Below are positions 3,433 to 60,473 of a DNA stretch of 64,000 bases, one piece after another; position 1 is the stretch's first letter; every line of letters begins with the position of its first letter. A model generated the notes under the pieces. The model saw nothing but the letters and a program-made list of their open reading frames with translations. It did no database searches and was not told where the DNA came from. Source of the DNA: an uncultured Nitrospiraceae bacterium (GTDB lineage Bacteria > Nitrospirota > Thermodesulfovibrionia > Thermodesulfovibrionales > Dissulfurispiraceae); contig CAVPIW010000012.1 in NCBI GenBank assembly GCA_963705105.1, forward strand, positions 256,001 to 320,000, read 5' to 3'. Both the position numbers and the translations under genes were made by a program.

Positions 3433-3642
3433 CCCTATAGTTGTTATAGAAAGGCGGGGCGAAGTGCCTCAAAGCCTTGCTGAAGGCGACGATACGCATT
3501 GTCATCTTCGTGTTTCAGGATCCCACTCTTTGTGTCATCGATCATGGGCGTAGCTCATCATGCGTTTTGATAAGGTGTCACCGCAGCAAGGTTTTCGGCG
3601 CATACACCCCGCCTTTCTTGGGAGTGTATTGCAGCGATAAGG
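3433..3642 (-). mobile_element. MITE family 1, core type B
   Basis: Arms AAAGGCGGGGCGAAG..AAAGCCTTGCTG / CAGCAAGGTTTT..CCCCGCCTTTC, end TGCAGCGATAAGG; no clear target duplication. Confidence 0.8.
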
Positions 3643-3760
3643 TTATTCCTCAATATTCCCACCTGGAAAAGGGGGATACAGGGGGTTGTCAAGGGGAAAG
3701 GCAGCTGCCAATCCTTGTTGTCCGGTCATTTTAAACGTTCTGATATACTATTTGCAAGGC

Positions 3761-4696
3761 ATGGAAGACCGTTTCACCATCGACGACGACCGCCGATTGC
3801 GGCTCGATTGTGCCGTGGCGGAAAGGACCGGGCTGACCCGTTCGCGGACGCAGAGGCTCATTGATAAGGGGTCCGTCCTTGTCAACGGGATTGCGGCGCC
3901 TCAGAGTTACCGTGTGCGGCGGGGGGACGTCATCGCCGTCCGGAAGCCCCTTCAGGCCGAAGAGCCGGGCCTCGTCCCGCAGGATCTCGACGTGCAGGTC
4001 CTCTATGCCGACGACTCCCTCGCCGTCGTCGACAAACCGGCGGGGATGGTCGTCTATCCCGCAGCGGGACATGCCTCGGGCACTCTCATGAACGCCCTGC
4101 GCCGCCGCTTCGCAAGACTGGCGACCGTCGGAGGTCCCCTGCGGCCGGGAGTGGTGCACCGCCTTGATAAGGACACATCGGGCGTCATGGTGATCGCCCT
4201 CGACGACGATGCGTACTATGATCTCGCCCGCCAGTTCAGGGACAGGACGATCGGCCGGGCCTACCTCGCGCTCCTTTTCGGCAACGTGGCGGCGGCGTCA
4301 GGGGAGATCGCGCTTTCCATCGGCCGGTCCGGGAGTGACAGGAAGAAAATGTCGACGAGGAGCCGGCGGGGCAAGGAGGCGGTGACGCGCTGGACCGTCC
4401 TGGAGCGGTTCGGTTGTGCGACGCTCGTCGAGGCGCGGCTCGGCACGGGAAGGACGCACCAGATCAGGGTGCATTTTTCGGCCACGGGTCATCCCGTTCT
4501 CGGTGACCGGACCTACGGCAGAAAGACATCACTTCTCATCGGCAGGGAAACGGTGCCGTTTCCACGGCAGATGCTCCATGCCCGCACCCTCGGGTTCGTG
4601 CACCCCGCAACAGGCAAGCCGATGGAGTTTGAGAGCCCCATTCCGGAGGACATGGCGGAATGCCTCAGTCGGCTGAGGGAGCCTGCACTCACGTGA
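3761..4696 (+). CDS. rluD: RluA-family 23S rRNA pseudouridine synthase with S4 domain
   Basis: VDKPAGMVV, HRLDKDTSG, GRTHQIRVH motifs. Confidence 0.9.
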   Translation: MEDRFTIDDDRRLRLDCAVAERTGLTRSRTQRLIDKGSVLVNGIAAPQSYRVRRGDVIAVRKPLQAEEPGLVPQDLDVQVLYADDSLAVVDKPAGMVVYPAAGHASGTLMNALRRRFARLATVGGPLRPGVVHRLDKDTSGVMVIALDDDAYYDLARQFRDRTIGRAYLALLFGNVAAASGEIALSIGRSGSDRKKMSTRSRRGKEAVTRWTVLERFGCATLVEARLGTGRTHQIRVHFSATGHPVLGDRTYGRKTSLLIGRETVPFPRQMLHARTLGFVHPATGKPMEFESPIPEDMAECLSRLREPALT

Positions 4697-4732
4697 CGAT
4701 GGAATTGCGATAATTGCCGTCCGGAAAAATCT

Positions 4733-4924
4733 CTGCCTGAAATGGCGGGACAAAGTGCTTCAAAGCCTTGCTGATAACGAGAATGATCATTTGAAATTGG
4801 AAGTTCGGGATTTCATACGACCTTTCATCAACCGCCGGACATGACATGATCCTCACGGGAAGGCATAGGTTTCGCAGCACCAAGGCTTTTCGGCAGCTTC
4901 ACCCCGCCTTTCCGGCGGTCCTAT
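4733..4924 (-). mobile_element. MITE family 1, core type A, eroded ends
   Basis: Similar to the reverse complement of 9732-9943. Confidence 0.75.
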
Positions 4925-4953
4925 ATGGTTGTCTCCTCCGTGAAGGTAGAGGG

Positions 4954-5469
4954 CTACCGTTTTTCGATCGCTTCCGATAATGAGACCCGTTCGGGCGGGG
5001 CCGGAATGATGGCCGGGTACCCGACGGGACAGACGACAACGGGTTTGAGGTTGTGGGGGAGTTTGAGGATCTGGTGGATGTTGTATTCGAGAAACGCCCC
5101 GACCCAGACCGTCCCGATGCCGTTTTCCTCGGCCACGAGCATCATGTTCATCATGCTGCAGGCCACGTCCTGGACGGCATAGAGGTACATGCCGCGCTCG
5201 CCGTATTTCTGGGAAATGCGGTCATCGGCGCACCCGACGATGACGAGCGGCGCCTCGGCGATGAATTCCTGGTTCAGCGCCGCGATGGCGATCTGCTTCC
5301 TGAGGTTTTCGTCGGTGACGAAGTAGAATTTTCTTGACTGGAGATTTCCGGCACTGGGCCCCCATATCAGGGCCTCGGAGAGTTTTGCGACGATGTCAGC
5401 CGGGATCGGCGTGTTCCGGAAGTTCCTGATGCTGCGGCGCTCTTTCACGGCCTTGAGTACTTCATCCAT
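4954..5469 (-). CDS. Nitroreductase family protein
   Basis: RRSIRNF, PSAGNLQ, GIGTVWVG, PVGYP motifs. Confidence 0.9.
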   Translation of the reverse strand: MDEVLKAVKERRSIRNFRNTPIPADIVAKLSEALIWGPSAGNLQSRKFYFVTDENLRKQIAIAALNQEFIAEAPLVIVGCADDRISQKYGERGMYLYAVQDVACSMMNMMLVAEENGIGTVWVGAFLEYNIHQILKLPHNLKPVVVCPVGYPAIIPAPPERVSLSEAIEKR

Positions 5470-5553
5470 CGCCTTTACCTCTTTCTCCCGCATACTGAGC
5501 GATGATGAGCGGGCATTCTTTTCTAACTAAAGCTTATCACAGGGATTGTCTCT

Positions 5554-5615
5554 TGGCAACAAAAAAGGTTTAATCGCGCCGCTTTTTTAGCGTCGGCTGG
5601 AGTATCTCGTCTCTC
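5554..5615 (-). repeat. Degenerate attC-like site downstream of the 431-aa ORF
   Basis: Minus strand: GAC-gagata-CTCCAGCCGACGC-taaaaaagcg-GCGCGATTAA-accttttttGTTGCCA; attC-like box spacing but the R'' AAC reads GAC. Confidence 0.45.
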
Positions 5616-5623
5616 TGATCGAC

Positions 5624-58895: not shown

Positions 58896-58913
58896 ATACT
58901 CCTGTCCCGATCC

Positions 58914-59195
58914 TCAGAATAGCCCCACGATCTTGTCCTCTCCGGCAAGCAGGTCGACGAGCGCGTCATAATCCAGTTGCTTCACGCCGCTCTTCACATC
59001 ACCGTCACGAATCCCCCTCAATCTGCAGTCCTCCTGCAGGATAGACACGGCACCGCAAAAATCGTCAAGGTCTGTCCCGCAGGCCGCGTAGATCCCGTTT
59101 TGCAGAAAGACGAGGTCGGCGGCCATATCCCTGGCGAGAGCAATCCCTCTTTTGCAGTCCGGCGTTTCAGGCGAGCTTTTTATCAGAACGATCAT
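58914..59195 (-). CDS. DsrH/TusB-like protein
   Basis: FLQNGIY, EDCRLRGI, LDYDALVDL. Confidence 0.8.
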   Translation of the reverse strand: MIVLIKSSPETPDCKRGIALARDMAADLVFLQNGIYAACGTDLDDFCGAVSILQEDCRLRGIRDGDVKSGVKQLDYDALVDLLAGEDKIVGLF

Positions 59196-59251
59196 GTTTC
59201 CTCCTAAATCTAATGCCTCTGCTCCCGTGCATGTCTTGTATTGAAGATATA

Positions 59252-59320
59252 CCTTGTTATTGCACACGCCCTCGGGGAAATGCAGGGCGAATGCGCCGAA
59301 AAGCCTCGGTGCTGAGAAAT
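59252..59320 (+). mobile_element. MITE family 1 left-end remnant
   Basis: CCTTGTTATTGCA..GCCGAAAAGCCTCGGTGCTGAGAAA. Confidence 0.55.
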
Positions 59321-59343
59321 GCCGGACGCGCGATTTGTGTTTA

Positions 59344-59697
59344 TCAGAACAGCATCGTCGTGTCGGCGTCTCTGACGAGTTCGGCGATTTTCCTGCTCTC
59401 TGTTATCCCGAACCCCCCGATCATGTCTGCGGGGCTGAGATTGAATGCCTGCGCTGACGGCGCGTCCGCATAGACCTCCACGCCCATGTCGATGCAGTCC
59501 TTCAAGGCCTCCTCCAGATTGGTGAATCCCGTGTCGGCCACGTCATGCCCTTTCTTTGCCAGGAGGACTCCCCCGTCCGTCAGGATGAGACAGACGCTCA
59601 AATCGTCGGCCACAGCGCCCATGGCGTGCCTGACAGCTTCTGCGGCGTTCATGTCACCGTAGGGCGCCCTTTTCAGAAACATCACGATTCTCTTCAT
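59344..59697 (-). CDS. DsrF/TusC-like protein
   Basis: RAPYG..AEAVR..DGGV..GVEVYAD. Confidence 0.8.
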   Translation of the reverse strand: MKRIVMFLKRAPYGDMNAAEAVRHAMGAVADDLSVCLILTDGGVLLAKKGHDVADTGFTNLEEALKDCIDMGVEVYADAPSAQAFNLSPADMIGGFGITESRKIAELVRDADTTMLF

Positions 59698-59710
59698 GGA
59701 TATGTTCCCC

Positions 59711-60067
59711 CTATGCGCCGATGTTGAGCCAGACGTCGGTTTCCGCCATAGTCCGGAAAAGTCCCCTGAGAGAGCCGACGTCCGTACCCGGGAGATAATC
59801 GTCCTTCACCGCACGGCGAAAGTTCAGGCATCCCCCTCAGAGGTACACCTTCAGTCCTTTCTCAATAAGCGCGGAGAACCACTCCCCGGCATTGGGAATC
59901 CCCTTTGCCTTTTGTCCCTTCAGAAAGCAGTAGACCCCGTCTCCCGACGCGATCAGGTTGACCGCATGCCCTTTTGTCAGGGCCGACTCCGCAATCCTGA
60001 TTGCCGTCAGGGTGTTTTGAGACGAATAAGGAGATGTGGACAAAAGGATCGTAAAGGTCTTCTTCAT
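59711..60067 (-). CDS. DsrE/TusD-like selenoprotein (UGA at 59837-59839 read as Sec)
   Basis: SPYS..GDGVY..GLKVYL-UGA-GGCLNFRRAV..DVWLNIGA*; the UGA falls at the expected active-site Cys position and readthrough gives a normal 118-aa length. Confidence 0.82.
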
Positions 60068-60261
60068 CGGAATCCCTCCGCTATGACAACAGTTTCGCAA
60101 TTATTACTCCGGCAACTGAAAACCCATGACAGTGTCGCTGCCGCACCCCCCCCACTCGATGCGGGAGCACAGGCAATCCTGCTGAAAACAAAGAAGGATG
60201 CCGGGCTGATTCCCGGCTGCGCGATGACAGGAGCCGGAATGACAAACCATAACATGCTTCA

Positions 60262-60473
60262 CCTTACAGTTGCGTACAAAAGGCGGGACGAAGCGCCTCA
60301 AAGCCTTGCTGAAGGCGACGATGAGCCTCGTCAGGTTCGTCATCCAGGATTCCACTCTTCGTGTCATCGATCATTGGTGTATAGACCGTCTTTCGTTCTG
60401 ATACAGGAGTCGCCGCAGCAAGGTTTTCGGCGCATACGCCCCGCCTTTCCAAAAAGCGTATGCAACGATAAGG
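60262..60473 (-). mobile_element. MITE family 1, core type B, 212 bp, TSD TTCA
   Basis: TTCA-CCTTACAG...GATAAGG-TTCA. Confidence 0.9.

Follow-up and report, generated by a model that had tools for sequence, protein, structure and literature searches.

The window analyzed here is a 64,000-nucleotide stretch of contig C12 (CAVPIW010000012.1) in the assembly of an uncultured Nitrospiraceae bacterium (G000; 4.23 Mb, 99% complete). Dispersed through it is a MITE (miniature inverted-repeat transposable element) whose imperfect 13-bp terminal inverted repeats enclose an inner fold-back hairpin, referred to below as the core. The original prediction, made from the window alone, listed 16 copies of about 212 bp, and family sequence is indeed present at all 16 positions. 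The length held for 10 of them (plain copies of 207–213 bp) and failed for the rest: those at 15618, 31430 and 57381 are composites, the copy at 54575 measures 200 bp, and those at 4733 and 59252 are also not plain copies. All eight 4-bp flanks reported as perfect (copies at 9732, 13303, 15618, 24739, 39536, 54575, 57946 and 60262) are exact. We likewise agree that no matching transposase lies in the window: the two transposases present are of the ISL3 and IS256 types, and their elements have other ends.

Genome-wide abundance and target duplications

A profile built from nine window copies and run across the genome with nhmmer gave 731 non-overlapping matches, of which 316 are near full length. 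Scanning with matrices for the left and right ends recovered 483 left and 484 right ends, compared with one and zero in a control of reversed sequence (one strand). These ends form 299 left–right pairs and represent about 480 insertions, or 2.9% of the genome, which bears out the expectation of many more copies outside the window. The pairs are predominantly intergenic (290 of 299, by a crude gene caller that under-calls at 75% coding) and show no orientation bias in tandem gaps (97:103).

The 4-bp flanks exceed chance genome-wide. They occur as duplications in 56 of the 91 copies with intact ends, compared with a mean of 6.0 and a maximum of 12 in 500 shuffles; lengths of 2, 3 and 6–9 bp are not enriched, and 5-bp duplications appear in two of the 91. 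The target follows T-N-N-A, with T first in 126 of 137 cases and A last in 126 of 137. The share of intact duplications climbs with identity to the nearest neighbor, from 10 of 48 to 33 of 55. Identical copies at separate sites indicate recent movement: the copy at 24739 in the window has an exact counterpart on contig C6, there flanked by TACA. The copy at 57946 is 99% identical to one on contig C7, also flanked by TACA. Rebuilding the empty site of 133 duplication-bearing copies gave matches across the site for 28, of which five are self-overlaps and several are weak; others match empty versions of multi-copy repeats at 95%–97% identity, with 25–62 matches each, and are paralogous sites within this genome. 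Contigs of other strains, compared from four runs with window positions 21000–31300, carry the element at many other sites; they end at repeats, and none spans the 24739 copy. We have little doubt that the repeat is a real and very abundant IS1380-type MITE. In kind it is an ordinary MITE, if one of the more abundant on record. The REP/REPIN-RAYT class (short palindromes without a variable target duplication) does not fit the variable 4-bp duplications and the insertion sequence (IS)-type ends.

The family is modular, a property missed in the original prediction. Subfamily A has 139 copies and subfamily B 41, each 212 bp long, and the mean identity of all near-full copies is 70%. Other copies have a right arm of microsatellite sequence, contain an inner module of greater age (module C) or are nested, and duplication-flanked spans range from 46 to 593 bp. 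There are also mosaic copies with exchanged arms and interiors. About 20 copies of the family are a fixed, decayed insert inside a second MITE of ∼245 bp, which is itself found genome-wide and makes 9-bp duplications (19 of 43 paired copies matching at 8–9 of 9 positions). Identical, inverted copies of an IS4-family element at C12:145643 and C12:150162 have ends similar to the second MITE and a 9-bp duplication, making this element a candidate helper of the second MITE; their 9-bp flanks seem to have traded places, the pattern an inversion would leave.

A candidate helper in the IS1380 family

IS1380-family elements generally have ends that begin C-C and duplicate 4–5 bp of target. A family-wide search with PF13701 (32 of 68 genomes) led to an IS in genome G047 with a MITE-like end, and its protein has full-length relatives at 61%–77% identity in six genomes (251 genomes of the order searched). 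The left end of this IS matches the right end of the MITE at 12 of 13 positions in G090, G106 and G271 and at 10 of 13 in G257; its right end matches the MITE's left end at 12 of 13 in G153 and G144 and at 10–11 in eight others. The MITE's two ends differ from each other, and their left/right assignment agrees with that of the IS ends. Right ends of the IS begin C-C, and the G271 left end begins C-T. G271 holds five copies, four of them 1521 bp long with perfect duplications (TTTA, TTTA, TTAA and ATAA) and the fifth interrupted; flanks are unequal in G090, G257 and G097. The three branch proteins tested score 224–232 bits against the IS1380 cut-off of 180 (NF033539), and the branch proteins keep the invariant residues D130, D211 and E331. 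The IS ends are short and lack the core hairpin.

A MITE with the ends of one IS1380 branch would be mobilized by that branch's transposase in trans, and we consider it likely, from these end matches, that a DDE transposase of this branch cuts and inserts the present family. The original prediction of a non-autonomous, IS1380-type element mobilized in trans thus gains support from intact IS1380 elements in relatives with the same ends and 4-bp duplications. The transposase gene bounded by such ends, which it proposed to look for, was found in related genomes of the order and not in this assembly. The helper may have been lost recently, may be unassembled, or may visit on mobile DNA. With a specific candidate in hand, trans-mobilization by an IS1380 enzyme becomes directly testable.

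Other candidates were examined within G000. Long end-to-end spans with a duplication contained just two chance-paired copies around gltX. The IS4, IS1634, IS1182 and other DDE loci, considered as helpers, have different ends (10 of 15 matches read).

The fold-back core and its conservation

The core spans ∼135 bp and has two stems, an outer one and an inner one with a bulge of two bases, along with a tandem G-A mismatch and a variable interior. Folding z-scores for the repeat are −5.1 as DNA and −7.0 as RNA. In an alignment of 20 core sequences from 18 genomes, analyzed with RNAalifold and pair counts, two-sided changes affect 17 of 28 pairs, a level reached in none of 500 shuffles, and 92.5% of cells are paired compared with 39%–52% when the pairing is slid. 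For a three-armed fold of the interior, an alignment of 12 gave just a few interior pairs. Counting one copy per genome, G-T pairs outnumber A-C pairs 23 to 7. With a sequence-only model, the element was detected in 26 of the family's 68 genomes and, in the order, in 22 of 141, spread over seven of 13 families. One further copy of the type seen in G004, with a near-perfect 4-bp flank, lies on a contig labeled Chloroflexota (L105:2430-2690), a case of transfer or mis-binning.

The same core is found within several sets of ends: the present one; a second, CCATAATCCG-like; and two similar to those of other IS1380 elements (L159 and L152). The CCATAATCCG-like ends have 5–6 bp duplications where measurable, and a partner IS for them was not found among 90 IS1380/IS1634 loci or by pattern in five genomes. 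Two end types occur within G056 alone, and in G177, G155, G191 and G015 the core is reversed between ends of the same type. Whatever the end type or genus, the full element measures close to 210 bp. The core is older than the ends and inherited separately from them. No autonomous element with the core at its ends was found: among 47 matches in GTDB genomes, 45 have both arms close together, and the remaining two, which are truncated, have no transposase within the 330 bp examined. There was no plasmid match. The original prediction did not recognize the repeat as a named family, and Rfam gave no gathering match in the window (best E-value 2, in 57300–60600). Judged by eye, likenesses to integron attC, integration host factor sites, CRISPR leaders and domain V of group II introns are probably poor.

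Within the genome, the core changes less than its surroundings. For the subfamily A copies used for rates (126 of 139, 208–215 bp long), counts on terminal branches put the changes per site at 1.9% for stems and 0.9% for bulges, compared with 4.3% for the interior and 4.7% for the left terminus. At monomorphic sites, rare alleles amount to 0.8% in the core and 3% in the outer stem, against 4.5% in the interior and 5.8% and 9.7% in the termini, and the borders of the low-change zone are sharp. Mismatches between the two copies of the duplication run at ∼4% per site (70 copies; 11 with at least three mismatches excluded). Ten copies with at least four terminal changes have 1.1% in the core and 10% in the interior. 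The left arm, located by an anchor lying outside it, differs by 1.0% where its partner arm is present (39/3753; 139 copies) and by 3.0% where it is absent (77/2565; 95 copies). Other genomes show a similar gradient, in copy sets chosen by similarity and, for G056, also by core anchors: 20% in termini, 10% in the interior and 6% in the core for G004 (20 copies), and 27%–41%, 5% and 2%–3%, respectively, for G056 (nine of 11 copies).

The explanation we favor is that purifying selection acts weakly on a site recognized through both its sequence and its shape, at the level of either DNA or RNA; this probably accounts for the low rate of change. A host factor would recognize the paired arms, on DNA or RNA, and damaged cores would be selected against after insertion. 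Several observations weigh against this reading or against the movement proposed with it. No IS1380 transposase or relic was found in G000 (PF13701; protein search to E 10; tblastn with seven IS1380 proteins to E 0.1), so trans-mobilization is inferred from the end matches only. The core, interior and terminal zones were set after conservation had been seen. The covariation count of 17 in 28 pairs overstates the case because the genomes are related, and the structure was derived from the same alignment. Contrast is slight in module C, a homologous core with 154 copies (2.3% and 2.6% vs. 3.3%), and just about twofold in subfamily B. Evidence on the strand is mixed: next to the 23:7 ratio across genomes, neither the private changes (G-T to A-C 82:60 and 33:36) nor the folding energy shows a clear strand preference. 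Finally, the core is about equally constrained in either orientation and whether the gap is tandem, divergent or convergent (0.9%–1.5%), with which a simple role in mRNA fits badly.

Gene conversion between copies, or template switching from arm to arm, could keep cores uniform with no host function, and we regard this as a considerably less probable account. Mosaics with swapped arms and interiors exist, and constraint is independent of context and dependent on the partner arm, as this process would have it. Subfamily A also carries about 17 two-sided changes in its outer stem. Unbiased arm copying predicts, however, that half of the mutations are fixed as double changes. Across 126 copies, the 22 pairs of the inner core show just three, so any arm copying may be confined to the outer stem. 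The unpaired bulges, which template switching would erase, are the least changed positions; the borders of the low-change zone are sharp; and the cores of subfamilies A and B remain distinct from each other. Quite improbable, to our minds, is a core that does no more than enhance transposition, being bent or bound so that the short ends can meet, and that is selected at each hop and uniform through ancestry. The near-constant length across end types and genera would suit it, as would retention of the core in every amplified lineage having both arms. Yet cores in copies with decayed ends and lost duplications are as intact as those in young copies (0.8% with an intact duplication, 0.8% without), which makes hop-time selection alone an insufficient explanation. 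Copies without a right arm, or without any core, also bear duplications and hence moved, and no such core is present at the ends of the autonomous IS. We give very little credence to a mover other than IS1380, namely, another enzyme of this genome of the IS1634, IS4, IS1182 or Y1/RAYT type. Such transposases are present, and identical copies imply recent movement, but of the 15 DDE_Tnp_1 matches, the 10 read all lack the MITE's ends, as do the multi-copy elements among those listed, whereas the IS1380 branch fits both asymmetric ends and the target.

On balance, the joint reading, in which a MITE with IS1380 ends is moved in trans and delivers a separately inherited hairpin cargo that is selected in place, is in our judgment the probable one, as far as sequence comparison goes. 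A bolder form of it, which we put forward only tentatively, takes the hairpin as a functional element in its own right that is recognized by a putative host factor, a domesticated signal delivered genome-wide by the MITE. It is possible, and no firmer than that, that such a hairpin has repeatedly recruited different IS ends as its vehicle across a Nitrospirota order, with the host keeping it at hundreds of sites after the ends decay. If the core is selected after insertion, this would be a measurable case of a bacterial MITE cargo that outlives its ends, one set of ends being traded for another around a structure that is retained, and it would bear on how dispersed repeats turn into host signals.

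Features of the window and known systems

The copies found in the window are listed in Table 1.

Table 1. MITE copies, fragments and the core in the window (positions within the 64,000 nucleotides)
Feature	Position	Strand	E-value
Subfamily A copy, decayed duplication	3433..3642	-	
B-like copy, both termini gone, hairpin retained	4734..4924	-	
Subfamily B copy, duplication TTAA	9732..9943	+	
Decayed right-arm fragment adjoining the 9732 copy	9947..9997	-	4e-4
Subfamily A copy, duplication TTTA	13303..13514	+	
349-bp composite with inner module C (diverged core homologue), duplication ATCA	15618..15966	+	
Subfamily A copy, flanks ATGC/ATGA	20325..20535	+	
Subfamily B copy, duplication TTTA	24739..24950	+	
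Lone right-end fragment, start approximate	27777..27804	+	
380-bp composite, module C plus microsatellite arm	31430..31809	-	
Subfamily B copy, decayed duplication	33145..33356	-	
Subfamily A copy, left end decayed (end approximate), between two efflux-pump genes	35919..36128	-	
Subfamily A copy, right end shortened, duplication TTTA	39536..39742	-	
200-bp copy with A-type left arm; right arm is a microsatellite and lacks the core arm; duplication ATTA	54575..54774	+	
217-bp composite, partial module C, decayed left end	57381..57597	+	
Subfamily B copy, duplication TGAA	57946..58157	+	
Conserved fold-back core within the 57946 copy, approximate; two motif arms ∼110 bp apart	57987..58121	+	
Left half only	59252..59319	+	
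Subfamily A copy, duplication TTCA	60262..60473	-	

Several neighbors of these copies are worth recording. A Cus/Czc-type RND efflux operon (OEP, HlyD and AcrB families) occupies 33404–39329, with MITE copies upstream, between two of its genes and downstream. REP-like nested palindromes, with 74 motif matches in the genome, lie at 39426–39510, 49981–50065 and about 60236; two MITE copies (39536 and 60262) directly adjoin such palindromes, and several insertions elsewhere fall inside them. The genome has four Y1 transposase genes. A right-end remnant of the second MITE is found at about 26855–26894. The ISL3 element (44476–45807; four self-matches) and the IS256-family element (46548–47927; 17 self-matches) have ends unrelated to the MITE. 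Short purine-rich tandem units at about 21868–21960 and 26765–26800 are multi-copy in contigs of related strains, and an alginate-export-like gene region (42636–44124) has one duplicate elsewhere in the genome.

Among known elements, the MITE resembles the IS1380 family (NF033539, PF13701) in its short imperfect inverted repeats starting C-C and its short duplication, and it shares its ends and 4-bp T-N-N-A targets with the 1521-bp branch of G271 and others. It differs from these ISs in having no transposase, and its interior is not derived from the IS by internal deletion. For comparison, the family member IS1247 is described as 1672 bp long with inverted repeats of 16/13 and a 5-bp direct repeat, and the IS1380-based non-autonomous forms described there are transposable modules that have an entire IS copy as their basis (PMC3281130). 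Two bacterial MITE reviews name IS1380 zero times, and we found no paper joining Thermodesulfovibrio, repeat, MITE and insertion sequence in a search made without ISfinder and most subscription literature.

In size, copy number in the hundreds, intergenic location, fold-back structure and IS-matching ends, the family is like Correia, ERIC, RUP, Nezha, Chunjie and QMITE as described (PMC10969869, PMC3184786, PMC3049150); relative to those descriptions, it is set apart by its IS1380-type ends, its modular and nested forms and a core common to different end sets. TIMEs, miniature inverted-repeat elements derived from Tn3, are also reported to keep a fixed length despite divergent interiors, to contain short conserved core stretches and to be mobilized in trans, but they have 38-bp Tn3 inverted repeats, 5–6 bp duplications and one to two copies per host (PMC4133298). 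Compared by description, Bacillus bcr1 is similarly dispersed, flanked by direct repeats and subject to structure-keeping compensatory changes; it differs in its length of about 155 bp, its 5-bp repeats and its known transcription, the present MITE being known from sequence alone (PMC3184786). Given the fixed length and conserved inner stretches of TIMEs and the compensatory changes of bcr1, those traits alone are not new. The kind of element is familiar; an inner hairpin that stays intact while its ends decay is the less ordinary part and suggests selection for a putative role.

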